DNA of 64,000 bases from a virus, in the IMG/VR virus record IMGVR_UViG_3300009506_000019, positions 64,001 through 128,000 of that record. One strand, given 5' to 3'. Shown here piece after piece: positions 20,283 through 34,648 of this stretch. Below the pieces are notes generated by a model, which was not told the origin of the DNA, made no database searches, and saw nothing but the letters and a program-made list of their open reading frames with translations. Within the stretch, counting starts at the first letter, position 1; each line of letters opens with the position of its first letter. The translations under genes and the position numbers were made by a program.

Positions 20283-20363
20283 ATGACAGGCGTGGGCTAG
20301 AAAAGACCACTCGGAGGGATGGTAGTCTACGCTTGCGCGTGCGCTCCAACCCACACCTGTCAT
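20283..20363 (-). promoter_or_regulatory. Structured 5' leader (three-way junction) of sigma-like gene
   Basis: ~19-bp closing stem with G-U pairs only on minus strand, enclosing ACGC-GCAA-GCGT and AGACTAC/GTGGTCT hairpins. Confidence 0.6.
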
Positions 20364-20364
20364 G

Positions 20365-20709: not shown

Positions 20710-20721
20710 CTCCGCCCACAT

Positions 20722-20973
20722 CTACGCCTCCACCATCAGCTCTGCGGCTGCGTCGATGACACCCATTCTCATTTCTTCGATTTCTCTTACTCTTATGGCC
20801 TTTCTATGAAGCTTGACCTCCTTGGTAAGTGCTTTATTCACTGAATGGAGCTGTTCTGCCTTCTGCAGCAGCCTGACCATTTCCCTTTTGTACTGGTTGA
20901 ATTGATGTCTCTTCCACTTCCTGCCCACCCACACCCCAACGATGAGACAGAAAATTCCAGTCAGTAGCAGCAT
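20722..20973 (-). CDS. Small membrane-anchored coiled-coil protein
   Basis: AGGAGG before ATG 20973; N-terminal hydrophobic helix followed by basic residues. Confidence 0.65.
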   Translation of the reverse strand: MLLLTGIFCLIVGVWVGRKWKRHQFNQYKREMVRLLQKAEQLHSVNKALTKEVKLHRKAIRVREIEEMRMGVIDAAAELMVEA

Positions 20974-21105
20974 GACGTACCTCCTACCCAACTAGTCATG
21001 CATGTTGCATGCCAACTCTGTCTCTGTGATGCATATGGCATGCCCGCTGCATTAATCAAAGGTGCACGAGCCGCTATAGACACACGTTCAACGGAGGCTT
21101 TCACA

Positions 21106-21765
21106 GTGGCCAAGAACAAAAAGAAACCAGTCAACAAGTCAAAAGATGTCGAGGCCAGCCCGATTCCGAGGCCCGAAAATCTGGTCATCTGCGACATGAT
21201 CAGGCAGCAAGGTCGCCATTGGGAAATCTCTGATGGCACTAAAGCTGTACCTGGAAAATGGTATAAGTCAAAAAGAGGATATTCAATCCTTCTTTGGGAA
21301 TTGCTTGAAGACGGATCTGTCATCGCACAATCGCACACCACTGGTAACAAAGTTACTGTCCCACCAGACCAGGTGTTGTATTTTACTCTTGATGAAGATC
21401 CGGGCACACCATGCGGCACTATTATGGTGGGCGGCGAGAGCGAGGGCGAGACGCCAGAAGAGATCGCCAAACACGACAGCGTGTACGCCAAATACCCGCA
21501 TATTATTCCTGGTTCTGTATATAAAGTACAGAATGTTGGTGTGAAAGACAACACACCACAGTGGGAAAGAAAAAGGAAAGGTAAAAAGACACAAATCAAA
21601 GGGCAAGTGAGATGCAAGATCCGCTGCCAAGAACCAGGATGTGATAACGAACGAGACATCAAAGTCCAGGACGCATTCCAAGTAAAGAAATGCGAAGCTT
21701 GTCGTGATAAGAAGAAAAAGAAGAATCTAGAGAAATTCCTGGACAAGAAGAAGGTCAAGAAATGA
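21106..21765 (+). CDS. Basic protein with C-terminal 4-Cys domain
   Basis: GGAGG before GTG 21106; YAKYPHIIPGS...RC....C...VQDA.Q.K.C..C. Confidence 0.7.
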   Translation: MAKNKKKPVNKSKDVEASPIPRPENLVICDMIRQQGRHWEISDGTKAVPGKWYKSKRGYSILLWELLEDGSVIAQSHTTGNKVTVPPDQVLYFTLDEDPGTPCGTIMVGGESEGETPEEIAKHDSVYAKYPHIIPGSVYKVQNVGVKDNTPQWERKRKGKKTQIKGQVRCKIRCQEPGCDNERDIKVQDAFQVKKCEACRDKKKKKNLEKFLDKKKVKK

Positions 21766-22040
21766 AGAACGAGGACATTTACAAGAAATATCCCCACATC
21801 ATACCCGGATCCATTGAAGAAGTTGATCGTGGCAGCGTGGTCCGGGGTGGGAAAGACAGCCAGATAACGAGTCATGGGAAGATCGCAATCATAAGATGTG
21901 CTGATTCAGATATGCCTGGCTGTCTGAAGACCAGGATTATCAACGTACAAGATGCTGAGCAGACTAAATACTGTGCTGCCTGTACTCGTAGACGCCGAAA
22001 TGAAAGACGCCGTGCCAGGCGTCACCAGCTGAAAAATTGA
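21762..22040 (+). CDS. Single-domain paralog of the preceding C-terminal 4-Cys domain
   Basis: YKKYPHIIPGS...RC......C...VQDAEQTKYCAAC plus Arg-rich tail; ATGA overlap. Confidence 0.75.
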   Translation: MKNEDIYKKYPHIIPGSIEEVDRGSVVRGGKDSQITSHGKIAIIRCADSDMPGCLKTRIINVQDAEQTKYCAACTRRRRNERRRARRHQLKN

Positions 22041-22098
22041 GGTCATTAATTTCGTCAATACCCCCTTCAGTCCCCGCCTCTCGAACCAGCATTAGCCT

Positions 22099-23367
22099 TT
22101 AGCAGGGAGAAACAGTAGAAAAAGCTGATTCCTCTACCGATACTCCGACAGGGGTATTCCGAGGGGAAAATGCCTTACCCCTCCACACGCGGCAGGCACT
22201 AGACGCGAAGTGTCGTATATTCTGCGCACCAGTGGCACGCAGGATGAGATTTCGACACTCTTCATCCTCCAGCATGTCGCGAACAGTTGCCAGATACCGA
22301 TTGGTTATACCATCCGGCAACGAAACTTCCCCTGCTAGTCCCCACGAATTGACAAACGTGTCACGGCCCTCTAGGAGCTGCTCTTTGCACCCACCGTACG
22401 AATCTACGTCGCTACCAACGGGCAGCGGGCATTCCGCCTGGCGTGGTTTTTGTGTGCGATCCGGAGACAATACTCGACTTGCCCCTTCACCTGGCCCTAG
22501 CAACGCCATGAAACTGTCAAATCTTACAGGAACTTCCTTCTCGATTCTTGCGCTTGTGAACGTGTTCGGCAGCTGTACTGCCAAATAAGTCACCTCCTGC
22601 ACTCGTCGTCGTTGAAAAATCTCTCGTCCTCGTACTCGTACTCGTCGCTCGGGGCCGAATCGATACAACCGTTCGGCCTCACGGAATGCCTCAATGGCAT
22701 CCGTTCTAGTGCAATCAGGCTGAAAAAGAAGAGACATCGGGTCTATCAAGAGGAATGTGCCTGTCTCGTTTACCCTGGCCTTTTTTGACAGCTTGATAGC
22801 AGCATCACGTTTATGACCCAAGATATCAGCATGGATCTCTCTACTCAGCAATTGACGACTACCATAGATAGCCATCAATCCGTAGAGCAAAGATTTAGTC
22901 TGATTCATATCCTTAGGATCAATCAGATTTTTGGCTTTGATGTCGTAACGTCTATCATCAAGGAAGAAGATGGCGGGCTTGAACGACGACAATTTGTCGC
23001 CATATGCGGACTTTTGCTTATGGAATGCAAGCTCGGCCATACGGTTGCGACCGGTTATTGAATAGTACCCGTCACCTTCTTCCTCAATGAACCCAAGAGA
23101 CATGGCCTTCCGTAGCCTACGTTGTGCCGTAGGCCGAATACACCCCATGTCTTTGATTAGTTGGTTGAGAAAATGTTTTCTATGAACGCGGCCGGAAGGA
23201 TTACCGCGATTGCGTGCCATCGCGAAATCCTGAGCTAATATCCATACTACAAATGCATCATGCGCTTGATTGTGAAGGGTCCACATAACAACAGACCCGC
23301 GCACTTTACATGTATGATCTGGATACCTCACAGCATCAGGATCCATAGTGCCATAGACAGCACGCAT
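22099..23367 (-). CDS. Putative DNA-binding (winged-helix) protein, possibly replication initiator-like
   Basis: LIKDMGCIRPTAQRRLRKAMSLGFIEEE resembles a wHTH; basic 422-aa ORF. Confidence 0.5.
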   Translation of the reverse strand: MRAVYGTMDPDAVRYPDHTCKVRGSVVMWTLHNQAHDAFVVWILAQDFAMARNRGNPSGRVHRKHFLNQLIKDMGCIRPTAQRRLRKAMSLGFIEEEGDGYYSITGRNRMAELAFHKQKSAYGDKLSSFKPAIFFLDDRRYDIKAKNLIDPKDMNQTKSLLYGLMAIYGSRQLLSREIHADILGHKRDAAIKLSKKARVNETGTFLLIDPMSLLFQPDCTRTDAIEAFREAERLYRFGPERRVRVRGREIFQRRRVQEVTYLAVQLPNTFTSARIEKEVPVRFDSFMALLGPGEGASRVLSPDRTQKPRQAECPLPVGSDVDSYGGCKEQLLEGRDTFVNSWGLAGEVSLPDGITNRYLATVRDMLEDEECRNLILRATGAQNIRHFASSACRVWRGKAFSPRNTPVGVSVEESAFSTVSPC

Positions 23368-23374
23368 TAATCCA

Positions 23375-23474
23375 CGGCTGCCACCACCACGATCGTGTGT
23401 TTGCAGTTAGAGCCAACCGTGGCGGTGGCAAGCCGCGAAAGTAAAATTCTCAGTTTTGTTGATCTGCAAACACA
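23375..23474 (-). promoter_or_regulatory. Predicted H-type pseudoknot abutting the start codon of 22099..23367
   Basis: Interleaved stems: 11-bp perfect TGTGTTTGCAG/CTGCAAACACA and 13+4-bp TGCCACCGCCACG/CGTGGTGGTGGCA. Confidence 0.6.
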
Positions 23475-23696
23475 GCTGACGTTTCTACCATGGCTCTACC
23501 TACCTGTCAATTATCGGCAGAAATGTTGAATATGTTGCTAGTTGGACATGTTCGATTTTATGTGGTAGGTAAAGATATGGACCAGCCCTCAAGTAGCGTT
23601 CACCCCCCCCAGAGGGAACAGTAAGGAAGGCTGCTGAGAGGGGATATCACTCAGCAACCAATCCTAACTCGGCTTGAGGGAAAAGACGTCTAGGGA

Positions 23697-24100
23697 CTAC
23701 GAGCGGCCAAGGAGGATGTTGTCCTTGCCTTGATCGAAGACATCGGCAAGAGTCTCAATGGGGCTGATGAGACACCCCTCTGTCGGAGTCGTGAGCCAAT
23801 ACTTCCGAGTGAACCCAGAAGGCGCCTTTGTCCAGCCAGACATGTCGTTGCCTACGATAGCGCAGAACCTGGTCATCAGCCGTGGGTCTGCGGGGGCGCC
23901 GCAGAGAACCCCGAAGTAGCTGGAACCCTCAAAGACGTTGCGAATGATCTGCCCATAATCAAACCCCCAAGCGGCGATTCCGTAGGAAGCGAGATCGTCA
24001 GCTTGGATGAGATTGTTCGCAAACCTCGCACCCAATGGGCGGCCAGATCGGCTGAACATATAGGCGAGCACACCGCCCATACGCTTGCCCTTAAAGACTA
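23697..24100 (-). pseudogene. Stand-alone divergent copy of the C-terminal ~130 aa of 24142..25458
   Basis: Colinear similarity (GKR.GG, ASYG..AWG.DYG...RN.F.GS..FG, YWLT..TE.CL..PI, QGK.N..LGR); similarity begins upstream of the ATG; no RBS. Confidence 0.7.
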
Positions 24101-24129
24101 CAGGCGGTAGTTAATCGCCTGTAGTCTTT
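24093..24129. terminator. Perfect 14-bp inverted repeat, probable (bidirectional) terminator
   Basis: AAAGACTACAGGCG-9nt-CGCCTGTAGTCTTT, 12 nt after the stop of 24142..25458. Confidence 0.7.
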
Positions 24130-24141
24130 TGCTAGATCACA

Positions 24142-25458
24142 TTACAAACGACCAAGAACGAGGTTGTTCTTACCCTGCTCCAACACCTTGCTGAGATCCC
24201 CGATTGGAGCAACGAGGCACTCTTCCGTCTTCGGTGTCAGCCAGTATGACTTATACATGACGGTCCACTCATCCATATTGTTCCCGACCAGCGCCCCACG
24301 TCTCGTGAGCGCGGGATAGGCGTCGGACGGGGATCCCCAACAGATACCGAATGTACCTGATCCTTTGAAGATGTTCCTGGTCACCACCCCATAATCAATG
24401 CCCCAAGCAATGAGACCGTACGACGCCATCTGCCGCGCATCGATGATGTTGTTATAAATGAGCGCACTATTGGGCCTGCCAACCGGCCCGATATTCGCAA
24501 AGAACCCTCCAAGGCGCTTGCCGTGCATTATGATCTCGTTGTCCTCAAAAGCGTAATCGCCGTGTGGACTTGTGAACAAAGCGGGATCATTTTGGACAAC
24601 TTTGTCCGCGCCGTGGGAGAGCACCAGCCCATACGACCCTCCACTGGACCCAGCAATGTGCCCACCATAGAAAGTCTCCATCTTGTTGAAAAGAGTCTCT
24701 CCTTGACCGAAATCGTCTACTTGTAGGATTCCAAAAGCTGAGTAGTTTTTTACCACACAGTCTCGGATGAGCGCCCTTTTACCCACCTGCCCAATGTGGA
24801 TACCCATTGAGAACCACGCATTTGGGGTTTCACCACCAGCATCCGGCCATGCCCCACCTTCCGACACCTTTGCAGGATTGACGGTCTGACGATCACCTAC
24901 ATAAGGATCTTCTGCGTCAGCGCCAGATTCGAGATCCACCTCGCAATTCCGTACCTCGACATTTCCAGTAATCTCAGTCCCAGTGACTGCCCCAAATCCG
25001 GAGCTTCCGACAAGCATCCAGATGTTCACCTTGTCTGGATTGGCCCCACTCATATCCTTTGATGTGGCATACCCTCCATGCACAGATTCCATGAGCACAT
25101 CTGCTGCATGCTTGACGATGATATTATGGTTAGCACCTTCTGTGACTTTCAGATTTTTGAGAGTGAAATTCTTTCCAACACCATCAAACTCGATGGAATT
25201 CTCACCACCGGTTATCTCAGTTTCTTCAGGACCGTCTCCTTGGACGGTGAGTGTCTTTGACAAAACCACCTGCTCTGCCGCTCCCAGCTCGAACTTCGTG
25301 GAAGCATCGGCTTGATGCATCGTGATGATATCACTGTCGGATGCATCATCATGAGCGGCTTGCAAAGCAGCTTGATCGCTACCGTATGGTGACCCGCCCA
25401 ATGGGGTTCCATCCTTGGTAACAGTGTGGCTCCCGCTGGTGACCACGTATTCGGACAT
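24142..25458 (-). CDS. Right-handed beta-helix (pectin-lyase-like) protein
   Basis: ALQAAHDDASDSDII cap, KTLTVQGDGPEETEITGG, repeated N-ladder strands; GAGGAG RBS. Confidence 0.7.
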   Translation of the reverse strand: MSEYVVTSGSHTVTKDGTPLGGSPYGSDQAALQAAHDDASDSDIITMHQADASTKFELGAAEQVVLSKTLTVQGDGPEETEITGGENSIEFDGVGKNFTLKNLKVTEGANHNIIVKHAADVLMESVHGGYATSKDMSGANPDKVNIWMLVGSSGFGAVTGTEITGNVEVRNCEVDLESGADAEDPYVGDRQTVNPAKVSEGGAWPDAGGETPNAWFSMGIHIGQVGKRALIRDCVVKNYSAFGILQVDDFGQGETLFNKMETFYGGHIAGSSGGSYGLVLSHGADKVVQNDPALFTSPHGDYAFEDNEIIMHGKRLGGFFANIGPVGRPNSALIYNNIIDARQMASYGLIAWGIDYGVVTRNIFKGSGTFGICWGSPSDAYPALTRRGALVGNNMDEWTVMYKSYWLTPKTEECLVAPIGDLSKVLEQGKNNLVLGRL

Positions 25459-25509
25459 GATCTTCTCCTCAAAAGTGGTTTGTTCGTTTGGTCATTCAGT
25501 GACTATCGA

Positions 25510-26274
25510 CTAGGTGTCGGCAATCACAGTGTACGTCTTGATGAGCGTGCCCACGCCCGACAGTAAGCTGAGACCGCTGACATCGATGGTGACGGTGATG
25601 ATGTCACCGATCTCGTAGATCTTTGTGGCTCCCGCGTCGGTGTCCATCACGACATCTATGGTAAGGTAGCCAGCCTCGAACTGAGGAGTCCCAGCAGGGG
25701 TCGCCGGCTTCACACATGTCGGAGCACCCCCCGTCCCCGTTGCAATGGGTACATAGGCAGGGGTGACTGTGGGAACGAAGTTGGCCCAGCCGTGGAGCAA
25801 CCCTTCAGAGGTAACCAGCTTCACACCGACTTTTTTGATCAATTCCCCAGCCGCTGCTCCATTGAGATCACCAACCTCAATGTCTTCAGCCAGGGCTCCG
25901 GGGTAAATGTTCAGAGCCGCATCCCCTTCTGCCATTGCCCCAACCACCTTCTCCAAACTCCGAACTGCATTTTGGAGAGCGAGCATAGAAAGAGAAGACT
26001 GATCATTCGCTGACTCGAGAGAATTCGTTAAGGTGCTGGTAGCCGCATCAAATTTGTCTTTACCAGCGTCTTCGAATTCATCAGGGGTGTCTGGATCTTC
26101 CTCAACAGTATAGCTAATATGCCCAGCTTGCTGGAGCTTTACCAGCTCGTCCACAGCTTGTTCTGGAAGATCATCAAAAAATCGTTTACTCTTCTCACCA
26201 CTAGCAGGGACGGAGAGTCTCAAAGACTGAATTGAAACTTTGACGTTTCGAAGATTCTTAATAGTAAGAAGCAT
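25510..26274 (-). CDS. Hypothetical (possibly virion) protein
   Basis: GAGGAG before ATG 26274; upstream promoter. Confidence 0.65.
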   Translation of the reverse strand: MLLTIKNLRNVKVSIQSLRLSVPASGEKSKRFFDDLPEQAVDELVKLQQAGHISYTVEEDPDTPDEFEDAGKDKFDAATSTLTNSLESANDQSSLSMLALQNAVRSLEKVVGAMAEGDAALNIYPGALAEDIEVGDLNGAAAGELIKKVGVKLVTSEGLLHGWANFVPTVTPAYVPIATGTGGAPTCVKPATPAGTPQFEAGYLTIDVVMDTDAGATKIYEIGDIITVTIDVSGLSLLSGVGTLIKTYTVIADT

Positions 26275-26349
26275 TTGTCTCTCCTCGCGATAACATCGCA
26301 ATGATATATAATATTCTAATTAAAAGTGTCTTTAGAAATACTTAAAAAT

Positions 26350-26378
26350 ATTGTACGCGTGATCACAATAATATGCAA
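26350..26378 (-). promoter_or_regulatory. Sigma70-type promoter
   Basis: TTGCAT-17nt-TACAAT in AT-rich gap. Confidence 0.6.
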
Positions 26379-26394
26379 TACATTAAAACGATTA

Positions 26395-26470
26395 TGGCGG
26401 GAGAGGAGGGACTCGAACCCTCATCAAACAGGTTAACGGCCTGTTGCTCAGCCAATTGAGCTACACTCCC
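26395..26470 (-). tRNA. tRNA-Asn(GTT), C33
   Basis: Cloverleaf, loop CC-GTT-AA, encoded CCA. Confidence 0.88.
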
Positions 26471-26474
26471 GCAT

Positions 26475-26549
26475 TGGTGGGGCGGAGTGGAATCGAACCA
26501 CTGCTCTCGGATTTTCAGTCCAAAGCTCTACCAACTGAGCTACCACCCC
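26475..26549 (-). tRNA. tRNA-Phe(GAA)
   Basis: Cloverleaf, loop CT-GAA-AA, CCA. Confidence 0.93.
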
Positions 26550-26552
26550 ATG

Positions 26553-26625
26553 TGCAGAGCTGGTCAGCCACGCGCTACCCATCCCAGATTGTGCTGGGCC
26601 AAAGCCTTGTCCGCTGCGCTCTGCA
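26553..26625 (-). ncRNA. Unassigned tRNA-sized structured RNA
   Basis: 8-bp closing stem TGCAGAGC/GCTCTGCA, CCCAG/CTGGG hairpin, no TTCGA loop. Confidence 0.45.
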
Positions 26626-26638
26626 ACTCTTACTTGTT

Positions 26639-26715
26639 TGGTGGACCGGACGGGACTCGAACCCGTGACCTCCTGGGTGCAAACCAAGCGCTCTCCCAAC
26701 TGAGCTACGCGGCCC
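26639..26715 (-). tRNA. tRNA-Ala(TGC)
   Basis: Loop TT-TGC-AC, G3-U70, one bulged base in acceptor stem, CCA. Confidence 0.92.
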
Positions 26716-26716
26716 A

Positions 26717-26792
26717 TGGAGCTGGTGAGAGGAATTGAACCTCCAACATCCGGTTTACAAGACCGGGGCTCTGCCAATTGAGCTACACCAGC
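26717..26792 (-). tRNA. tRNA-Thr(TGT)
   Basis: Loop CT-TGT-AA, CCA. Confidence 0.93.
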
Positions 26793-26810
26793 TCTTTGCC
26801 AGCGTTCAAT

Positions 26811-26885
26811 TGGCGGGCCTACTCCGACTCGAACGGAGATCTCCGGTTTTGGAGACCGGCATCCTACCAATTGAACGATAGACCC
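26811..26885 (-). tRNA. tRNA-Trp(CCA)
   Basis: Loop CT-CCA-AA, CCA end. Confidence 0.92.
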
Positions 26886-26905
26886 TTGTTTCTTCACCAC
26901 CCGGC

Positions 26906-26980
26906 TGGTGGGCCGGGAGGGAATCGAACCCTCAACAAACGGGTTAAAAGCCCGCTGCGCTACCGTTGCGCCACCGGCCC
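26906..26980 (-). tRNA. tRNA-Lys(TTT)
   Basis: Loop CT-TTT-AA, CCA. Confidence 0.93.
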
Positions 26981-27014
26981 ACACCGCCGATGGTCTTCTC
27001 CTCAGCGAACCGGA

Positions 27015-27091
27015 TGGTCCGCCAGGGAGGACTCGAACCCCCGACACGCGGGGTAGAAACCCGCTGCTCTGTCCAACTGAGCTACTGACGG
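27015..27091 (-). tRNA. tRNA-Arg(TCT)
   Basis: Loop TT-TCT-AC, CCA. Confidence 0.9.
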
Positions 27092-27111
27092 ACAGATCCG
27101 ATATTCGCGAC

Positions 27112-27187
27112 TGGTAGGCGAGGGGAGAATCGAACTCACCAACCTGTCGCTTATAAGGCGACGGCTCTACCATTGAGCTACTCGCCA
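27112..27187 (-). tRNA. tRNA-Ile(TAT)
   Basis: Loop CT-TAT-AA, U1:U72 mismatch, CCA. Confidence 0.88.
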
Positions 27188-27199
27188 TTTCTCTCGAGT

Positions 27200-27274
27200 T
27201 GGACCGCCAGGTCGGAATCGAACCGACGTGCGCCTGCTTGGAAGGCAGGGGACCAGCCACTAGCCCACTGGCGG
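27200..27274 (-). tRNA. tRNA-Gly(TCC)
   Basis: Loop CT-TCC-AA, U73, CCA. Confidence 0.9.
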
Positions 27275-27277
27275 TTT

Positions 27278-27353
27278 TGGTGCGCAGAGCAGGGCTCGAA
27301 CCTGCGACCCTCTGCTTGTAAGGCAGACGCTCTCCCAACTGAGCTACCCGCGC
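27278..27353 (-). tRNA. tRNA-Val(TAC)
   Basis: Loop CT-TAC-AA, CCA. Confidence 0.93.
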
Positions 27354-27355
27354 AC

Positions 27356-27431
27356 TGGTCCAGGTGAGTGGAATTGAACCACTGACATCACGATTATCGG
27401 TCGTGTGCTCTCCCATCTGAGCTACACCTGG
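27356..27431 (-). tRNA. tRNA-Ile(GAT), C33
   Basis: Loop CC-GAT-AA, CCA. Confidence 0.9.
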
Positions 27432-27443
27432 ACAATGAAAGGC

Positions 27444-27567
27444 GGGGCTGGGGCGTCGCGCTCTTTCCATGCATCGACCATTCGCACCCTCTGGCTTAGC
27501 GAGCCAGCGCACAGTTTCTGGGGTGTCAGCCCCATGGTCTACCCCACGCTCTGACAAGCGTTGCCCC
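27444..27567 (-). ncRNA. Unassigned multi-stem RNA with complementary (kissing) loops
   Basis: Hairpin loops TGTCAG and CTGACA are exact complements; additional GACCAT/ATGGTC and CTGGCT/AGCCAG stems. Confidence 0.6.
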
Positions 27568-27574
27568 ATAATTT

Positions 27575-27649
27575 TGGTAGCGGGAGCGAGAATCGAACTC
27601 GCGACGGTCTGGTTATGAGCCAGATGTTCTACCACTGAACTATCCCGCA
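27575..27649 (-). tRNA. tRNA-Met(CAT)
   Basis: Loop CT-CAT-AA, U1:U72 mismatch, CCA; initiator/elongator status unclear. Confidence 0.88.
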
Positions 27650-27660
27650 ACAAATGCAAG

Positions 27661-27736
27661 TGGAGGGCCAGGCAGGAGTCGAACCCGCGACACCTTGGTC
27701 CGTAGCCAAGTGCTCTGTCCACTGAGCTACTGGCCC
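27661..27736 (-). tRNA. tRNA-Arg(ACG)
   Basis: Loop CT-ACG-GA, CCA. Confidence 0.92.
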
Positions 27737-27738
27737 TT

Positions 27739-27814
27739 TGGCGGTGCGTACGGGAATCGAACCCGTCGTTTCCTGAGTGACAGTCAGGCCGGTTCACCAG
27801 CTCCGTCACGCACC
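27739..27814 (-). tRNA. tRNA-Asp(GTC)
   Basis: Loop CT-GTC-AC, G73, CCA. Confidence 0.9.
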
Positions 27815-27901
27815 GAGACGTGACCCAACTGTCCTTCAGTAGGTTCTGACCGTTTTGTCGATACCACCGAAGGAGGTCAGTTAGGCCACGGTGGTATCTC
27901 G
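27815..27901 (-). promoter_or_regulatory. Putative attenuator: mutually exclusive RNA structures between leader 1 and tRNA-Asp
   Basis: Perfect 10-bp GATACCACCG/CGGTGGTATC helix competes with long CGTGGCCTAACTG..TCCTTCGGT/ACTGAAGGA-CAGTTGGGTCACG hairpin. Confidence 0.65.
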
Positions 27902-27988
27902 AAAATTCGCTTTAATACCGGCCCACATTGTCGTCGTTATGACGACTCTTCCGGTCCTTGCGACCGAATGTGTGCCGAGGGGTAACAT
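27881..27988 (-). CDS. Putative leader peptide 1 (35 aa) of the 14-tRNA operon
   Basis: MLPLGTHSVARTGRVVITTTMWAGIKANFRDTTVA*; last 27 residues use exactly the 12 amino acids of the downstream tRNAs; ATG 7 nt after TATAAT. Confidence 0.8.
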   Translation of the reverse strand: MLPLGTHSVARTGRVVITTTMWAGIKANFRDTTVA

Positions 27989-27995
27989 CACGATC

Positions 27996-28024
27996 ATTAT
28001 AACACAGCATGCTGTGCGTGTGAA
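27996..28024 (-). promoter_or_regulatory. Sigma70-type extended -10 promoter of the 14-tRNA operon, with 14-bp palindrome in spacer
   Basis: TTCACA-17nt-TATAAT, TGn; CACAGCATGCTGTG at 28003-28016. Confidence 0.75.
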
Positions 28025-28031
28025 TTATTAG

Positions 28032-28115
28032 TGCTGAGGGCGGGACTCGAACCCGCACGAGCAATTGCCCAGGAGATTTTAAGTCTCCAGTGTCTACCAA
28101 TTCCACCACCCCAGC
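28032..28115 (-). tRNA. tRNA-Leu(TAA), CCA not encoded
   Basis: Long variable arm, loop CT-TAA-AA, ends A-CTA. Confidence 0.92.
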
Positions 28116-28116
28116 T

Positions 28117-28202
28117 TGGTGGGCAAGGAGGGAATCGAACCCTCAATCCCGAAGGCACTGGTATTTGAAGCCAGCGTGTATACCAAGTTCCACCACTTGC
28201 CC
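28117..28202 (-). tRNA. tRNA-Leu(CAA)
   Basis: Long variable arm, loop TT-CAA-AT, CCA. Confidence 0.9.
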
Positions 28203-28280
28203 ATGAGCTACGCGCCCTGGAACCCTGTCGTAGCTCGATGACGCCCTCCTACGTGCTTGACGCCACACCACTTTCTCGAT

Positions 28281-28366
28281 TGGTGGGTGCGGAGGGAGTC
28301 GAACCCTCAATCCCGAAGGCACCAGATCCTAAATCTGGCGTGTATCCCAAGTTCCACCACGCACCC
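28281..28366 (-). tRNA. tRNA-Leu(TAG)
   Basis: Long variable arm, loop TT-TAG-GA, CCA. Confidence 0.92.
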
Positions 28367-28367
28367 T

Positions 28368-28453
28368 TGGTACGGGAGGCGGGACTCGAACCCGCACGGA
28401 CAAGCCACATGCTCCTCGGGCATGCGCGTCTACCATGATTCCGCCACTCCCGT
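28368..28453 (-). tRNA. tRNA-Leu(GAG), C33
   Basis: Long variable arm, loop CC-GAG-GA, CCA. Confidence 0.9.
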
Positions 28454-28463
28454 AGCTTACTTT

Positions 28464-28529
28464 TTACAAGGATAAGAGTCGCAGGAGGAAACCTGCGACA
28501 GCGATCGAGTTGTGCGTTTTATTCGCCAT
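28464..28529 (-). CDS. Putative leader peptide 2 (21 aa) of the tRNA-Leu operon
   Basis: MANKTHNSIAVAGFLLRLLSL*; Leu codons CTC CTG CTC TTA TTG; overlaps 8-bp hairpin GTCGCAGG/CCTGCGAC; stop 10 nt before tRNA-Leu(GAG). Confidence 0.7.
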   Translation of the reverse strand: MANKTHNSIAVAGFLLRLLSL

Positions 28530-28538
28530 CTCACTCCA

Positions 28539-28567
28539 AGTATAACATACTGGTGACCGCACATCAA
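28539..28567 (-). promoter_or_regulatory. Sigma70-type extended -10 promoter of the tRNA-Leu operon
   Basis: TTGATG-17nt-TATACT with TGn. Confidence 0.7.
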
Positions 28568-28586
28568 TCATTACCTATATCCGGAC

Positions 28587-28760
28587 ATGGACGAACAGCA
28601 ACAAAAAGATGCATTAGAGTTGTTGAAGGAAGCCACGGCAGCTCACCCAGACATTGTTTATGGAAGACCCAACACAGTAATTTCTCACACAGACATGGTG
28701 AATTGGTTGTATCAGTGGATTCCTCGAGTTCAAGGCTTCCTTGATGAAGTTGATGGATAA
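28587..28760 (+). CDS. Small hypothetical protein (57 aa, below ORF-track cutoff)
   Basis: MDEQQQKDALELLKEATAAHPDIVYGRPNTVISHTDMVNWLYQWIPRVQGFLDEVDG*; fills the divergent gap. Confidence 0.5.
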   Translation: MDEQQQKDALELLKEATAAHPDIVYGRPNTVISHTDMVNWLYQWIPRVQGFLDEVDG

Positions 28761-28812
28761 ATTGACAACCACCACGTGATTATGATCTAATTGGAAGTGA
28801 TAGGAGAACGTC

Positions 28813-28923
28813 ATGGATACCGTGATGAAAAACACAGGCTTCGCTGTTCTTGCCAACGCCCTTGTTGGTCAGTCGCAGCCGTGTTACTCCTATCATCATT
28901 ATTCACAACCACACAGTAGTTAA
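28813..28923 (+). CDS. Putative leader peptide 3 (36 aa) of the 7-tRNA operon
   Basis: AGGAG RBS; MDTVMKNTGFAVLANALVGQSQPCYSYHHYSQPHSS*; last 17 residues are only Q,S,P,C,Y,H; stop 16 nt before tRNA-Ser. Confidence 0.85.
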   Translation: MDTVMKNTGFAVLANALVGQSQPCYSYHHYSQPHSS

Positions 28924-28939
28924 GGCACGCTCACATAGA

Positions 28940-29029
28940 GGAGCGGTAGCCTAGCCTGGTAAGGCGGCGGGTTGCTAACCCGTTGGTGTGCTTGCACACT
29001 CGAGGGTTCGAATCCCTCCCGCTCCGCCA
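28940..29029 (+). tRNA. tRNA-Ser(GCT)
   Basis: Long variable arm, loop TT-GCT-AA, CCA. Confidence 0.93.
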
Positions 29030-29047
29030 TTTTCTTGTGAGGTTGTG

Positions 29048-29230
29048 ATGAAGGATGAATTCAAGAAAGCAGTAATCATGACAGGTGACGTACCGCACTG
29101 TTCGTGTCGGTATTGCAAAAACCTGAATCGCACCAGAATCGACAGGAAAAAGCAAAGAAAACAAAAGAGAAAAAGGAGGGCAAGACAGATTTTGAAGAAA
29201 TATTTACGTACGGGAGTAGCGCAGTGGTAG
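29048..29230 (+). CDS. Small basic protein with HCxCxxC motif inside tRNA operon
   Basis: GAGG before ATG 29048; MKDEFKKAVIMTGDVPHCSCRYCKNLNRTRIDRKKQRKQKRKRRARQILKKYLRTGVAQW*; last codons overlap tRNA-Pro. Confidence 0.6.
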   Translation: MKDEFKKAVIMTGDVPHCSCRYCKNLNRTRIDRKKQRKQKRKRRARQILKKYLRTGVAQW

Positions 29231-29284
29231 CGCACCGGTTTTGGGAGCCGGGGGTCGTGAGTTCAACCCTCACCTCCCGTACCA
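29210..29284 (+). tRNA. tRNA-Pro(TGG)
   Basis: Loop TT-TGG-GA, CCA. Confidence 0.9.
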
Positions 29285-29287
29285 AAC

Positions 29288-29375
29288 GGATGGGTAGCCT
29301 AATTGGTAAGGCACCAGTCTTGAAAACTGGCGATGCATTCGTGCACTGCGGGTTCGAGTCCTGCCCCATCCGCCA
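29288..29375 (+). tRNA. tRNA-Ser(TGA)
   Basis: Long variable arm, loop CT-TGA-AA, CCA. Confidence 0.93.
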
Positions 29376-29384
29376 GCTTAAATT

Positions 29385-29455
29385 GCACCCGGCCGCAGGC
29401 GAAAGCCGAATTGGACCGAGCGAAAGCCGAAAGTCCGAGGATGACGGCCGGGTGC
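29385..29455 (+). ncRNA. Unassigned structured RNA with GAAA tetraloops
   Basis: Perfect 11-bp stem GCACCCGGCCG/CGGCCGGGTGC enclosing GGC-GAAA-GCC and GGAC..GC-GAAA-GC..GTCC. Confidence 0.6.
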
Positions 29456-29460
29456 TTTAT

Positions 29461-29536
29461 GGCGGTTGTAGCTCAATGGAAGAGCATCCGGTTGTGGCCC
29501 GGAAGACGAGGAGTTCAATTCTCCCCAATCGCCCCA
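29461..29536 (+). tRNA. tRNA-His(GTG)
   Basis: G-1:C73, loop TT-GTG-GC, CCA. Confidence 0.92.
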
Positions 29537-29539
29537 AAA

Positions 29540-29614
29540 GGCCAGATAGCCAAGTGGCAAGGCATGGAGCTGCAACCTCCATCATCGTCGGTTCGATTCC
29601 GACTCTGGCCTCCA
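29540..29614 (+). tRNA. tRNA-Cys(GCA)
   Basis: Loop CT-GCA-AC, U73, CCA. Confidence 0.93.
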
Positions 29615-29615
29615 C

Positions 29616-29689
29616 AGAGGAGTCGCTCAATGGCAGGGCAACGGGTTTTGGCCCCGTTTATCTGGGTTCGATTCCCAGCTCCTCTTCCA
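29616..29689 (+). tRNA. tRNA-Gln(TTG)
   Basis: Loop TT-TTG-GC, CCA. Confidence 0.9.
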
Positions 29690-29694
29690 TCCAT

Positions 29695-29782
29695 GGGTGT
29701 GTAGACCGCTATGGACACGGGCTTGGCTGTAGACCAAGCGTGCTTTGGCACCGTGAAGGTTCGATTCCTTCCACACCCACCA
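29695..29782 (+). tRNA. tRNA-Tyr(GTA)
   Basis: Long variable arm, loop CT-GTA-GA, CCA. Confidence 0.9.
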
Positions 29783-30244
29783 TCAATCATCTGAAGCTTC
29801 AGCCCAGGTGAACTGAACACCCCAACTACCACTCGGATTATCAAACCAGTGGAGTGCCTCGGTGTGGTCGAGCCCCATCCTCATCTTGCCGTACGAAAAA
29901 CCATCTTCTCCATGGCCTGCGGTGTACTTCCCTCCACGAGTATTCAACTCCACATCACCGTTCTCCGGTCCATGTTTGGAAACTGTCGTCAAGCACCAAC
30001 CACCGTCTTCGTCTTTGTACATATCGACGTAGTAGTAGTCTCCTGGCGTATACTCCTTGCCTCGATTGTCGAGTGCCGGACCTCGGAAATTCAACGTGGC
30101 ATCGCCTGACGGAGTGAACTTCCAGAACACCGCATTCTCAGGATTCTTGCCATTCTGAAGGACTGGACCCAACTCGACGATGACTGAACGGTCCCACTTC
30201 TTGGTGACTGACAAACAACGGAATTTTGCGCGTACTTGTCTCAT
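29783..30244 (-). CDS. Hypothetical phage protein
   Basis: GGAGG RBS; RAKFRC...ENAVFWKFTPSG motif; own promoter. Confidence 0.7.
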   Translation of the reverse strand: MRQVRAKFRCLSVTKKWDRSVIVELGPVLQNGKNPENAVFWKFTPSGDATLNFRGPALDNRGKEYTPGDYYYVDMYKDEDGGWCLTTVSKHGPENGDVELNTRGGKYTAGHGEDGFSYGKMRMGLDHTEALHWFDNPSGSWGVQFTWAEASDD

Positions 30245-30315
30245 CTCTTCCTCCAAAAACGGTTTGAGTTGAGACCGCGCTGTTGACCCGGATCGCGGAC
30301 GTGCCGGTTACTATT

Positions 30316-30344
30316 ATTCTATCACAATCTGTACTTGACAGCAA
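30316..30344 (-). promoter_or_regulatory. Sigma70-type extended -10 promoter
   Basis: TTGCTG-17nt-TAGAAT with TGn. Confidence 0.55.
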
Positions 30345-30520
30345 CGCCACGACCACTTGGAGCCTGTGGATCGAGGAGGTCCTTTGGAACCATCATTTGC
30401 AACCACACAATCTCATACAACCGTTGCATGGTTTGAGAATAATCGTATGTGACACGAACAAGTGAAACTGTGGTGAAGGACTCACCACCAGCAGGGTCTA
30501 CCCCAACCAAAAGCTTTCGC

Positions 30521-30913
30521 TCAGGTCTGCCCTTCAGTAGCTTCAGGAGACACCTCTTGTACGTTTGGTACCTCTTTGGGAAGAGGAACAGACCTAGTGA
30601 ATGGGTTTGGGTTGTCGGGTGTTACCATACCTTCTGTTTGCGGTCTGATCACAATGGATTGTTGTAGATCGAATTTCCATCGTGAAACATCTTCACCAAC
30701 TCGTTGAGAAACCATCTTTGCAATCAATTCCTCCTGCAAAGCAAGGTTATCCAATTCTCTGCTTTTCAGCTCCTGTTGAAGTTTCAAGTTCTTGAACTTA
30801 AGAACCTCAGTTTCTGTAAGCCTATACCCACCAGGTTTTTTGGGCTTGTTCTCTGTTGGTGGTGCATCTTTGGGGTCAGTTCCACCGTTGCCTTTGACTT
30901 CTGCTTCAGACAT
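30521..30913 (-). CDS. Hypothetical coiled-coil protein
   Basis: AGGAG before ATG 30913. Confidence 0.65.
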   Translation of the reverse strand: MSEAEVKGNGGTDPKDAPPTENKPKKPGGYRLTETEVLKFKNLKLQQELKSRELDNLALQEELIAKMVSQRVGEDVSRWKFDLQQSIVIRPQTEGMVTPDNPNPFTRSVPLPKEVPNVQEVSPEATEGQT

Positions 30914-30962
30914 GGCTGTCTCCTGTAGGGTACTATATTTCAAAAGAATTTTGGATTTATCC

Positions 30963-31337
30963 CTACTCGATGGTTCCAGCAAAATGGCCATTATCAATCA
31001 ACCATTGATACAAAACTCGAGCAACACCATCATATAGAAGCTCTGCACCATCTGTTGGCAGAGAGGCTACCATGTCAGTAAAATCCGTAACATCAGGTAT
31101 CGGATCTCCTGCGCCATCAACCTGACCAATCATGTCTCTAATCGCATAATCTTTGGGAAAACCAACCGGTTGAAACATACCGGCTACCCATTTGGAATCT
31201 TGAATCGTACCATATTCAACCACAAAGCGTATGTATTTTGCTTCTGTCTTGAGCTGAAAATCTACAATTTTGACACGATCATAATCGAATCCCTCAAGAT
31301 CGCCAGGGCTGACCGCAGTTGTCAACAATAATGCCAT
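30963..31337 (-). CDS. Putative fibre-associated/chaperone protein, paralog of 4060..4392
   Basis: Directly downstream of 1097-aa fibre; shared motifs. Confidence 0.7.
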   Translation of the reverse strand: MALLLTTAVSPGDLEGFDYDRVKIVDFQLKTEAKYIRFVVEYGTIQDSKWVAGMFQPVGFPKDYAIRDMIGQVDGAGDPIPDVTDFTDMVASLPTDGAELLYDGVARVLYQWLIDNGHFAGTIE

Positions 31338-31346
31338 CTGAATCTC

Positions 31347-34300
31347 CTATCCTACAAATCCTTCTGGGGTTATGATTGTCGCCTGTACTGATGCCCTGCC
31401 ACCGTGAATCACCATCGGCTCATTATCTCCAGCTGCCCATCCTGACGAAGTAAAATCCCACTGAACATAAAAATGTGTCGTCTCATCTATGTCCTGATCT
31501 GTGCCAGAATTTATATTAAATACTGTATCGTATGCCGTAAGAGCATCTGTGACACCAGTGTTAAATTCAGTTGCTACTTGAGATCCACTACCATTAAAGT
31601 TTACTGCTCTTTTCCACATTCTAACACGAATGTTGAATGCCTGAAACATGTTGAACTTAGTCCAATATACATGAACTTGGGTGAGTTTACCGCCCTTAAA
31701 ACCACCACATGGAATGGTTATGTAACCAGCAATGTCCAATTTGTATAAGGATCTTCCTTGTCCATAGCATCTTGATTGACCACCCTGAAATCCATTTTGT
31801 GATTGGCCGCAGTTCATACCAGAAAAACCGATGAGGTATGTTTGAGTTGATGGTGTTCTAAACGCGTTTTTGTCCAATCCGTACACCAAATCCCCTCTTA
31901 GATTTGCTGCACGTACGTTGTTCCATTGTTGACCAGACAATCCCCAATCCTGAGCATTATTGAACCCAGGACAGAAGTTTCCATTACCAAGGCCAATCAA
32001 TGATGCATCAATGATACCATCATTTCCAGTATTTGCAAGAACAATAGCTCCGTCTGGTGCTGTTTGTCCACTGTCGGTTTTCTCTATCAATAAGAAATTG
32101 TTTGGTACATTTCCGGTGGCATTTACTATTGCTTGCAAACCAGATCCAGCATAACCAATACGAGCGCCATCTGCGTTTGGATTAGTAGAGCCATCACGCG
32201 TTGCGTTTGCGCCCCACCTAATGTTGGTTCTTTCTGTAACACCAAAATCGAAACCCCCAACATCAAGACTCCAGATGTTTGATGCAGCAATGTATGCATT
32301 CAATTCATTTGACGCTCTAACATACTCGAGCCTATCTACTTGGCTAGCAGTGTCAAATACAATCCTTGGATTGGAACCATCGAGTTCCAAATAGAATGCT
32401 GTGTCTTCAACTTCTACCCTATCACCAAAATGAACACGACCTACACCTGTGTGAACTGCCCAATTGTTAACACCACGGCTTTGGTTTTCTACCTTAATAC
32501 CGTACGCGTTGGTTATTTCTGTTGCTGCTGAGTGTGTTCCACCAGGAGCTTGAGCATGGACCGCAATGGCATTGCCAACATTGGCACCAGAATCAACATC
32601 AACTCTTCCCCACAAGCTGTCTGCTGTAGTGACTGTGCCACCTACATGTTGACCACGCACCAATGACAAAAGACCAACGGCATTAGCCATCGTGCCACTG
32701 CCGAAGTCCAAGATGACATCGGATCTTATACCCTGTTTGAGCCCATCCTCAGCGGTACTGTATTGTGCGGCACTGAAGATACCATATTGTTCTGTGCTGC
32801 GTCCGTAGGTGTGTGCTTTACCAACTACGGTAAGCTGTGCTCTACCAAGAGCATAGTTAACAACGTTCGGCCCATCATAGTTCGGATCAAGAATCCCTAC
32901 TTGACGATGTGTTATAGACGCTGGACTTTCAGCCTCATCGGTCTCTCCATCAAACCAAAGAGCTGCATCGTCCCTGATGTCGAATGGAGCAGTGATTCCG
33001 AATAGCCGCTTGTCCAATACTTCGTTTGGAGCGTTATTGACGCCAAAACCATTCCCCAAGAAACCAGTCGCGGCACCCGAGTAGACAACCGTACAAATAT
33101 GCAACCGATCTTTTAACTCGTTAGTGGTTGGACGATCCGAGATTGTCAGTGGACCAATCAAATCCCCAAAGGTTCCCAACGATGAACTAACCAGCAAATC
33201 GATATAATCGATACCATTATTGCTAAACAAACGCATTGGTAACGATCCGCTGGACGGGATGGCTTTTGCTGGTCCAGCCGAATCACCGGGTGCTGTATAT
33301 GTTAGCAAGTTAGAAGCAGTGGTAAAAGCAATTTGACCAGCACCAGCAACAGTGCCTTCACTCAAATCACGAAGTTGTACATAAGTCGTTAGTGTGCTGA
33401 GTGTGTCAAATCTTACACGCTCTCGTTTTTCGATGTCTGTCTGGCTATTTGGTCCATTCTTAGCAAATATTTCAAACAAAATTTGGGTATTATCTACCAC
33501 GTCCGTCATTGGGACGGCTGTTTGATTGGATGAGATGAATAAAGTACCACGGAGATACACATAAAAATTTGGACCGACTGTGATTGATAGTTCGTCTGGA
33601 GAGGCTCCAGTATTTACTACCGCCTGCAGTGTGGTTATATCAGAGTCACGCCTGATGCCGTTTGAATGCATCAGCGTCTGGTGTTCTTCAATTGGTGTTC
33701 CAGAAATACCGAGATCCGAAAGTGTCAGACCATGTGGGTTATTCGGTGTTGGAACACCGCTACCAACCAGAGATCGGTGATGAATATCATTTGATGAATG
33801 TCTCGGTGCATCTTCATAATAAAGATTTTGTACCTGAATTGTGTCCGTTTGATTGGATACTGGCAGAATTGCAGAAGATACAAATACTGTCAAAGTTTTG
33901 TTGGATGGAAATGACTCAAGTTCGAAGAAACCACCATCCAATACATTTACCGGATTTCCGGTAGTGTCATCTGGCGCGGTCCAAGTGAGAGTTCCATCAT
34001 TGAAATTGAATACTAAAGTTCCGTTACCGTTTGCTGTTCCGGCTTCTGCTGATGAAATTGTAACACCGGTAACATTGTTTGTAAGGTTGGCAATATTGAT
34101 AGCACTTCCAAATATCGGTGGAAGTTGTATTGCAGAAGACGGGATAGATACTCCGGATCCCTGAGCTATGACCGATGCTGCAATCAGAGTTCTATTGCGA
34201 GCATCATTATCAAAATTGTCGTCACTCTCTGGAAGAGCATCATATTGTGCTCGTGTGAATACTCTTAGCCGCACACTCCTATTTGCTTCTGTTGGGAAAC

Positions 34301-34637
34301 TATCTCCGGACGTCTCGTGTGGTTGTGGTCTATCGTAGCTTTCCGTATATACCAATACCACAAGATTTTCAACACCAACGGAAGAGTTGGCCAAAGAAAC
34401 AGCCGTGATACCGGATTCTAGTTCAGCCAGCTCTCCATCAGATGTATATCCATATCCAGCTTCAACATCGAGCAATGCTGGGTTGCCTGTGTTTGGAGTT
34501 ACAGAAAGACCAGCAACAACACCTGGAAAGGTATTATCAATGTGTCTTTGTAAAATATGGAAGGAGCGTGTGTCCTCAGTATGTTTGAGGTCTGATTGGT
34601 GGACCTCTACTCCCTCTGGGTATAAGCTTCTATCCAT
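31347..34637 (-). CDS. Putative tail fibre/baseplate-attached protein (long paralog)
   Basis: N-terminal ~550 aa colinear with 34649..36595; distinct G-rich C-terminus. Confidence 0.7.
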   Translation of the reverse strand: MDRSLYPEGVEVHQSDLKHTEDTRSFHILQRHIDNTFPGVVAGLSVTPNTGNPALLDVEAGYGYTSDGELAELESGITAVSLANSSVGVENLVVLVYTESYDRPQPHETSGDSFPTEANRSVRLRVFTRAQYDALPESDDNFDNDARNRTLIAASVIAQGSGVSIPSSAIQLPPIFGSAINIANLTNNVTGVTISSAEAGTANGNGTLVFNFNDGTLTWTAPDDTTGNPVNVLDGGFFELESFPSNKTLTVFVSSAILPVSNQTDTIQVQNLYYEDAPRHSSNDIHHRSLVGSGVPTPNNPHGLTLSDLGISGTPIEEHQTLMHSNGIRRDSDITTLQAVVNTGASPDELSITVGPNFYVYLRGTLFISSNQTAVPMTDVVDNTQILFEIFAKNGPNSQTDIEKRERVRFDTLSTLTTYVQLRDLSEGTVAGAGQIAFTTASNLLTYTAPGDSAGPAKAIPSSGSLPMRLFSNNGIDYIDLLVSSSLGTFGDLIGPLTISDRPTTNELKDRLHICTVVYSGAATGFLGNGFGVNNAPNEVLDKRLFGITAPFDIRDDAALWFDGETDEAESPASITHRQVGILDPNYDGPNVVNYALGRAQLTVVGKAHTYGRSTEQYGIFSAAQYSTAEDGLKQGIRSDVILDFGSGTMANAVGLLSLVRGQHVGGTVTTADSLWGRVDVDSGANVGNAIAVHAQAPGGTHSAATEITNAYGIKVENQSRGVNNWAVHTGVGRVHFGDRVEVEDTAFYLELDGSNPRIVFDTASQVDRLEYVRASNELNAYIAASNIWSLDVGGFDFGVTERTNIRWGANATRDGSTNPNADGARIGYAGSGLQAIVNATGNVPNNFLLIEKTDSGQTAPDGAIVLANTGNDGIIDASLIGLGNGNFCPGFNNAQDWGLSGQQWNNVRAANLRGDLVYGLDKNAFRTPSTQTYLIGFSGMNCGQSQNGFQGGQSRCYGQGRSLYKLDIAGYITIPCGGFKGGKLTQVHVYWTKFNMFQAFNIRVRMWKRAVNFNGSGSQVATEFNTGVTDALTAYDTVFNINSGTDQDIDETTHFYVQWDFTSSGWAAGDNEPMVIHGGRASVQATIITPEGFVG

Positions 34638-34648
34638 CACTTACCTCT

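Follow-up and report, generated by a model that had tools for sequence, protein, structure and literature searches.

The window analysed here, 64,000 nucleotides (nt) of DNA from a large, uncultured phage, corresponds to bases 64001–128000 of the IMG/VR record IMGVR_UViG_3300009506_000019, which measures 166,061 base pairs (bp) and is estimated to be complete. It contains 25 transfer RNA (tRNA) genes in three clusters, and a 26th gene, for tRNA-Glu, is found elsewhere in the genome, so that 20/20 amino acids are covered; the idea of a missing tRNA was rejected for this reason. Within the minus-strand cluster of 14 tRNAs, a 143-nt gap separates tRNA-Met(CAT), which has its CCA encoded (27575–27649, minus strand), from the downstream tRNA-Ile(GAT) (27356–27431, minus strand); judging from related arrays, this gap very probably holds the gene of a selected, structured non-coding RNA of about 126–135 nt, with the fold described below. 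A strong promoter-like site (TTCACA, 17 nt, TG and TATAAT, 11/12 matches; 27996–28024, minus strand) stands upstream of the first tRNA of the operon, tRNA-Asp, and no promoter or terminator motif was found between tRNA-Met and tRNA-Ile or from the operon promoter-like site to the element. Family libraries cover this phage very poorly: Pfam gave no match for ten open reading frames (ORFs) of 124–1097 amino acids (aa) around the tRNA clusters (window 19300–36595), and PHROG none for seven of these ten.

Comparative fold and conservation

One minus-strand frame is open across the operon, which explains why gene callers sometimes call "proteins" over tRNA arrays; relatives were reached by this route, using phmmer with the translated piece from tRNA-Met through the gap to tRNA-Ile against all called proteins. 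The matches led to the contigs L024, L025, L026–28 and L029, and two further matches gave L031 and L032; the candidate P0021/L030 was rejected, as its match consisted of tRNA-Phe only. L024 carries a copy 96.5% identical to the window element, also between tRNA-Met and tRNA-Ile, and L029 carries a copy 75% identical in another slot, from tRNA-Phe to tRNA-Asn. The gap is also covered at 97–99% identity by contigs from public runs of four studies (one RNA library and three DNA libraries).

A consensus fold was obtained with RNAalifold on the alignment of the window, L024 and L029 (alignment A3); the loop-loop helix was added by hand, and the pairs were then counted. RNA positions (p) are numbered along the minus strand, on which all parts of the element lie, with p = 27575 − x for window position x, so that p1 is window position 27574. 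The whole element, p1–135 (27440–27574), consists of AAAUUAU, a folded core (p7–132) and CCU. The core is closed by helix P1, in which UGGGGC (p7–12; 27563–27568) pairs with GCCCCG (p127–132; 27443–27448), the latter directly followed by a conserved CC, and by helix P2, which joins GGGGU (p30–34; 27541–27545) to GCCCC (p121–125; 27450–27454). Hairpin H1 (p14–29; 27546–27561) has the stem strands ACGCU and AGCGU (14–18/25–29) and the loop UGUCAG (p19–24; 27551–27556). The junction AGACCA (p35–40; 27535–27540) leads to hairpin H2 (p41–56; 27519–27534), with the stem strands UGGGG and CCCCA (41–45/52–56) and the loop CUGACA (p46–51; 27524–27529); the loops of H1 and H2 pair in a kissing helix of 6 bp (p19–24 with p46–51; 27524–27556). 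The remainder comprises a weak helix P3 (p62–66/88–92; 27483–27513) around hairpin H3 (p68–84, stem 68–73/79–84; 27491–27507), in which CUGGCU and AGCCAG flank the loop CGCUA, and hairpin P4 (27455–27478), in which p97–100 and 102–104 pair with 114–116 and 117–120.

With the kissing helix included, 97% of the cells of the A3 alignment are paired in the consensus fold. Between the window and the lineage of L029, nine pairs have changed on both sides and still pair, a level of covariation reached in 0/500 shuffles, with slid controls giving at most one such pair. These double changes are distributed over H1 (17–26 and 18–25; C-G to U-A and U-A to A-U in L029), P2 (31–124; G-C to A-U in L029), H2 (41–56, U-A to A-U in L029, and 44–53), H3 (68–84 and 72–80, both C-G to G-C in L029), P4 (102–116) and the kissing helix (21–49). 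At 44–53, X7 shares the G-C pair of the window, which gives way to G-U in X2 and to A-U in X3, X5, L024 and L029 (X2, X3, X5 and X7 being the public runs); pair 102–116 is U·G in the window, C-G in L024, X3, X5 and X7, and U-A in L029. One further change in H2 of L029 is one-sided (G42-C55 to G-U), and two P3 pairs are broken there. Variants of X2 at p57, 64, 67 and 69 were left out of the fold scoring, and nine further X2 differences are unlisted. Since the G-U pairs U7·G132, U34·G121, U102·G116, G44·U53 (X2) and G42·U55 (L029) can pair only on the tRNA-sense strand, this is the strand of the RNA.

The two hairpins with exactly complementary 6-nt loops that the original prediction had placed on the minus strand, working from the letters of the window, are present where it located them, and each of its three hairpins (H1, H2 and H3) contains two pairs that changed on both sides with pairing kept. 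Its closing stem GGGGC/GCCCC likewise stands, GGGGC being found at p8–12 and GCCCC twice, at p121–125 and p127–131; only a one-sided change was seen in this stem (U7·G132 to U-A in L029). When the loop-loop interaction was checked for covariation in related arrays, pairing was found to be kept through one compensatory double substitution, U21-A49 to A21-U49: all six pairs of the kissing helix form in the window, L024 and L029, and the L029 loops, UGACAG and CUGUCA, retain 6/6 complementarity with exactly 2/12 bases changed, these two being partners of each other, for which the chance is estimated at about 3% given two changes. The energy of the kissing duplex is −6.3 kcal/mol in both lineages.

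As a whole, the nested model of the original prediction gave way to the comparative consensus, at −36.0 versus −52.5 kcal/mol; it had missed P2 and P4, both of which carry covariation. The consensus fold lies close to the minimum free energy (MFE) of the window (−52.9 kcal/mol), and in L024 the two energies coincide. The sequences of the proposed stem GACCAT/ATGGTC do exist in the RNA, as GACCAU (p36–41) and AUGGUC (p94–99), and junction AGACCA has a possible alternative partner in UGGUC (p95–99), but this pairing competes with the outer pairs of P4. The 5-bp helix in question (36–40/95–99; alternative model B) is compatible with every covarying pair and excludes just the outer P4 pairs, at about 3 kcal/mol above model A; since none of the 15 bases in the three strands that compete has changed, covariation favours neither outer P4 nor GACCA/UGGUC, and the RNA might also switch between them.

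By sequence identity, conservation of the element matches that of the tRNAs of these phages. It is 75% identical between the window and L029, where orthologous tRNAs are 58–78% identical; between the window and L024, the value for the element (96.5%) compares with 96% for tRNA-Met and 74–78% for tRNA-Ile, tRNA-Val and tRNA-Lys. Paired positions account for 25/32 differences between the window and L029, and the junctions are more conserved than the stems, with no change among the window, L024 and L029 in junctions such as AGACCA, GAAAC and UGGUCGAUG. A coding reading of the gap was rejected: the differences between the window and L029 are spread evenly over the codon positions of the open frame (10/9/13), and 5/7 population variants would be non-synonymous in that frame, which argues that the gap is free of coding constraint.

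The complementarity of the two loops is by itself weak evidence at the scale of a scan. A mechanical search for hairpin pairs with stems of at least 5 Watson-Crick pairs, loops of 4–8 nt, a distance of at most 80 nt and at least 6 complementary loop bases returned H1/H2 as the only qualifying pair in the 64-kb window, and none in 60 block-wise dinucleotide shuffles of the window; yet with 350 nearby hairpin pairs and odds of about 1/4096 to 1/2000 for each, 0.05–0.15 such matches per window are expected by chance. Since the loop match is weak alone and the energy of the fold is unremarkable against shuffles, the case rests on the comparison with other sequences.

The view that this is a structured RNA without a family, on the minus strand and inside a tRNA operon, is borne out by Rfam, which has no gathering-score match in the gap and nothing credible up to E = 10. 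A covariance model, R1, was built from the window, L024 and L029, and scores 174, 174 and 146 bits on these sources, as expected by construction. It detects one copy in the genome and no further copy in the fetched loci (the records of L024, L025, L026 and L029 were not searched whole). Exact and degenerate DNA patterns gave chance matches or nothing in IMG/VR, JGI metagenomes and GTDB genomes; BLAST of both versions of the element against cultured phages, and a word-index search with the spurious ORF over the gap among proteins of 249–793 aa, gave no match. The neighbouring ORFs at 25510–26301 and 24142–25458 have no close relatives in IMG/VR, and the distant relatives of the 438-aa neighbour protein (L021–L023) are without tRNAs at that place. 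The comparison establishes the strand, the conservation and the absence from known families, as well as the fold, which rests on two lineages; on these sequence grounds, the element is a new RNA family among the small structured RNAs borne in phage tRNA operons.

Processing and possible role

Since the element lies inside a 14-tRNA operon and has no promoter or terminator motif of its own, its release by tRNA processing is likely. The layout fits the excision through processing of the flanking tRNA-Met and tRNA-Ile that had been proposed, while the cleavage itself is what we infer. The element would be transcribed as part of the operon and released by the tRNA-processing machinery; an RNase P cut at tRNA-Ile would set the downstream side and with it the 3' boundary of the precursor piece, the upstream side would be made either by an endonuclease acting in the conserved A/U-rich AAAUUAU that follows the CCA of tRNA-Met or by RNase P at U7|G8, and exonucleases would trim the ends back to helix P1. 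Several features back this scheme, including the A/U-rich 5' flank (AAAUUAU/AGUUAU), U(−1) and G(+1) of P1, and the purine-C-C after P1; U(−1), G(+1) and R132-C133-C134 (R, purine) are kept in the window, L024 and L029 (3/3 for the purine-C-C). RNase P prefers U(−1), G(+1) and RCCA.

By comparison, P1 (7–12/127–132) and P2 (30–34/121–125) form two stacked closing helices with H1 branching between them, and the multiloop closed by P2 bears H2, P3/H3 and P4; pairing of the 6-nt loops of H1 and H2 would then lock the fold. That this kiss is formed within one molecule is, in our assessment, an even call. In TAR-TAR* and in ColE1 RNA I/RNA II, hairpin loops of 6–7 nt pair along their full length in a quasi-continuous helix, which shows that a kiss in which all bases of two 6-nt loops pair is sterically feasible; those interactions take place between two molecules, whereas the element bears both loops on one RNA.

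It has been clear since the work on T4 that phage tRNA clusters can include additional small stable RNAs, which are still without explanation. The T4 RNAs rnaC (139 nt) and rnaD (119 nt), the species 1/2 RNAs, resemble the element in size and place, being annotated directly after tRNA-Arg; they are transcribed together with the tRNAs and freed by tRNA-processing enzymes, and a protein-binding or decoy role has long been suspected for them. They differ from the element in that no sequence or structure homology is found: R1, with filters off, reached at best 7.7 bits (E = 0.49) in T4 66000–76000, and had no match in the T4 rIII–30.9 gap. In addition, rnaC ends in a T-arm-like hairpin that the element lacks. 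By analogy, the element could be a stable, trans-acting RNA that binds or decoys a protein during infection, a role that we propose with low confidence at most. At about 126 nt, the element is compact enough for probing and for in vitro assays of its processing and oligomerisation. Comparison defines its four hairpins and two closing helices, and two point mutations could break and restore the loop-loop contact; the element could thus reveal what operon-borne RNAs do, and would add a family to RNA catalogues.

Several points weigh against a selected RNA gene with this fold and role. The comparison covers two divergent lineages and close variants only, with one or two events per helix and a single event for the kissing helix. 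Taken singly, the sequences fold no better than their shuffles (z-scores of the MFE of −0.67 for the window and −0.66 for L029). Related arrays (L026 and L031) lack the element between tRNA-Met and tRNA-Ile, and it is therefore dispensable. The presence of element sequence in contigs of the metatranscriptome library X2, which cover 27474–28119 and 27273–27452 but not 27453–27473, does not prove transcription, ends or a processing site; and the functional part is an analogy.

Competing readings

The strongest competitor to an intramolecular kiss, tentative as it is, would have the two loops pair between molecules to form dimers or closed rings, as in the phi29 packaging RNA (pRNA), ROOL and GOLLD. 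Covariation is blind to the difference between intra- and intermolecular pairing, and the connection of H1 and H2 is short (11 nt, five of them within P2), so that an intramolecular kiss would be geometrically tight; by our own estimate, however, 11 nt can still span a bent kissing stack of 16 bp. ROOL measures about 580 nt. Like the element, ROOL and GOLLD are structured RNAs of phages and prophages with a tRNA-island context and a puzzling function; they are far larger and assemble into cages of 8 to 14 monomers, whereas the element has 126 nt. Both often occur near tRNA islands, in one case with GOLLD (>800 nt) downstream of a Met-tRNA, and their covariation-backed kissing loops, once read as tertiary contacts, proved to be intermolecular bridges (bioRxiv 10.1101/2024.12.08.627333). 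The phi29 pRNA is likewise phage-encoded, at about 120 nt, and carries a three-way junction and two mutually complementary loops; it forms rings through loop-loop pairing, and chimeric pRNAs form dimers (PMC12084888). It pairs by 4-nt loops between molecules on the portal, however, and is encoded near the genome end of small phi29-like phages rather than in a tRNA operon. No Rfam match to pRNA (RF00044), ROOL or GOLLD was found in the element, which at 126–135 nt also falls short of the 500–800 nt of the latter two. That the operon yields a miniature self-assembling phage RNA, in closed dimers or rings as a 126-nt counterpart of the ROOL/GOLLD cages and the pRNA ring, seems rather unlikely to us on this evidence; if true, it could act during infection, for instance by sequestering a host factor or as the scaffold of a phage complex.

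The element might also be a tRNA mimic without an anticodon arm that engages or decoys a tRNA-binding protein, an idea that is as open as the self-assembling one and that we regard as improbable. In such a mimic, the stack of P1 and P2 would represent the acceptor and T stems, H1 the D arm, and the H1-H2 kiss the elbow of D-loop and T-loop; RNase P would cut at U7|G8, and the CCA-adding enzyme would complete the purine-C-C tail. The strand order (P1, 1 nt, H1, P2 ... P2', 1 nt, P1') is that of acceptor, D arm and T stem, and P1 (five G-C pairs), an A·A apposition and P2 (five pairs) together make about 11 stacked pairs. The conserved U(−1), G(+1) and R132-C133-C134 point the same way, as does the T-arm-like end of T4 rnaC (CCGGGUUCGAAUCCCGG). 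The element thus shares an acceptor-like closing helix, a D-arm-like side hairpin and a possible elbow-like loop contact with the tRNA-like domain of transfer-messenger RNA (tmRNA) and with YrlA; yet it has no T-loop motif, and the ARAGORN, Rfam tRNA, tmRNA and YrlA models all miss it. ARAGORN made no call in 27432–27574, the tRNA model (RF00005) had no match inside the gap to E = 10, and the YrlA/Y RNA-like model (RF02553) gave sub-threshold matches on true tRNAs only; a prophage small RNA of the STnc100/PasD type (RF02076) was also without a match, in 26300–29900 to E = 10. Furthermore, the acceptor-like stem has 5–6 bp instead of seven, the tail reads RCC-U/C where the neighbouring tRNAs Met, Ile, Ala and Phe have a full encoded CCA, and position 132 can equally be read as the partner of U7.

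The distribution of the element accommodates a further reading, in which a mobile or recombining cassette spreads as a passenger between tRNA genes, and its structure serves its own maintenance or the neutrality of its processing without any function in trans. The element is sporadic: it occupies the Met^Ile slot in the window and L024 and the Phe^Asn slot in L029, while L026–28, L031 and L032, with the otherwise conserved tRNA order Asp-Arg-Met-Ile-Val-Gly...Ala-Phe-Asn, have a Met^Ile gap of just 5, 8 or 53 nt, and it is absent from L026 and L031. The spacer of L024 consists of the element plus 8 nt, and these last 8 nt are identical to the entire Met^Ile spacer of L031, from which we infer that about 135 nt are gained or lost here as one discrete unit. 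These two slots and the clean pattern of presence and absence suggest that the element moves, or is lost, as a cassette. The arrays are mosaic, with an Arg-Met-element block 92–96% identical between the window and L024 next to the more divergent tRNAs Ile, Val and Lys, and related arrays contain homing-endonuclease-like genes. Nonetheless, terminal repeats, target duplications and an associated enzyme gene are lacking, and nine compensated pairs with invariant junctions, kept across a divergence as deep as that of the tRNAs, indicate selection on the folded RNA; a mere passenger is therefore quite improbable.

A self-cleaving ribozyme that trims the neighbouring tRNAs, in the manner of the theta ribozymes, which resemble that of hepatitis delta virus (HDV), is a remote prospect. 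The element begins 6 nt past the CCA of tRNA-Met and combines a pseudoknot-type contact with the conserved GAAAC junction; but its 126 nt are double the length of theta ribozymes (about 50–60 nt), and its hairpin-hairpin kissing within two closing helices differs from the nested double pseudoknot of HDV-like ribozymes. A reading of the sequence finds no hammerhead CUGANGA core, no Rfam model for hammerhead, HDV-like/theta, twister, pistol or hatchet ribozymes matches to E = 10 (theta ribozymes may not be in Rfam), and nothing in the evidence supports self-cleavage, even though small ribozymes do adjoin viral tRNAs (PMC10879173; bioRxiv 10.1101/2023.06.13.544163). Chance, in the form of a decayed tRNA, an ordinary spacer with fortuitous hairpins or a protein-coding frame, could draw on the fold z-score of −0.67, the expected rate of loop matches and the frame that is open over the whole operon with the gap included, but is largely refuted, and highly improbable, in view of the covariation, conservation at tRNA level, the uniform substitutions and mostly non-synonymous variants, the lack of any tRNA-model signal in the gap, and a genome that already has tRNAs for all amino acids.

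Other features of the tRNA arrays

In the Met^Ile slot, L025 has a different structured RNA of 116 nt (L025:4384–4499; z = −3.0), with a 12-bp closing stem and two 7-bp hairpins with the 6-nt loops CUGACC and CUGGAC. Short motifs common to this spacer and the window element (a CUGAC loop, GRAAC, CUGUGCUGG and AGAGGG) raise the possibility of a reduced relative that lacks H1 and P4; the spacer was left out of the family, since no reliable alignment was obtained and R1 misses it. In the window, the 89-nt gap between tRNA-Ala and tRNA-Phe (26550–26638, minus strand) is occupied by a second folded element that is conserved. Its three small hairpins are enclosed by an 8-bp closing stem (UGCAGAGC/GCUCUGCA), which gives it a cloverleaf-like shape without tRNA signatures, and Rfam has no match; this element is about 90% identical to part of the Ala^Phe spacer on a 197-kb JGI contig (L026:8413–8502), where one pair is compensated (A-U to G-C). 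At its start, this spacer of L026 has a tRNA remnant (L026:8370–8412), namely a 3' half with T arm, acceptor strand and CCA.

The open frame over the operon (window 26448–27911, minus strand) runs without a stop across 14 tRNAs and their spacers for 454 codons, compared with 19 stops in each of the other two minus-strand frames, and starts right after the stop of a 65-aa ORF (27912–28109). Among 20,000 permutations of the tRNA/spacer order, none reached this length (maximum 447, mean 155), and our own calculation from the open frames of single units gives about 4e-6 for such a run; the operon might be translated throughout, or the open frame might follow from spacing in multiples of three (7/13 units) or be due to chance. 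The plus-strand array from tRNA-Pro to tRNA-Tyr (29104–29811) has an open run of 231 codons (permutation p = 0.0065). Stop-poor sense frames also occur in L031:5996–7568 (24/26/3 stops per frame; p < 3e-4), L032:6248–7819 (30/23/4; p = 7e-4) and L025:4141–5652 (26/22/2; p = 0.08), which were found through such ORFs and thus constitute a biased sample; L026 and L024 have none. Public sets include called "proteins" of 300–600 aa over tRNA arrays (P0006, P0012, P0014 and P0017).

All four public runs have contigs on the tRNA region (window 26300–28600) at 97–99% identity, including non-tRNA parts such as 27815–28030; in each run one contig ends at 26393, and 26300–26376 is covered by none. The runs share 0.26–0.38 of the words of the 7-kb query, roughly the share of the tRNA array. 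Since the contigs match the array, end at 26393 and share words in about this proportion, the tRNA array may be a module that passes between phages whose flanking genes differ. The window also has a tRNA-Ile with a genome-encoded TAT anticodon (27112–27187; called by ARAGORN, 55.6 bits with the Rfam tRNA model), which recurs in L024, L026 and L032; the AUA codon is normally read by a modified CAU tRNA, and a TAT anticodon in tRNA-Ile is unusual. Finally, the phage that carries the more divergent copy of the element has a tRNA with a CUA anticodon (L029:314–390), called "Pyl" by ARAGORN; as a candidate amber suppressor, it hints at stop-codon recoding in that relative.

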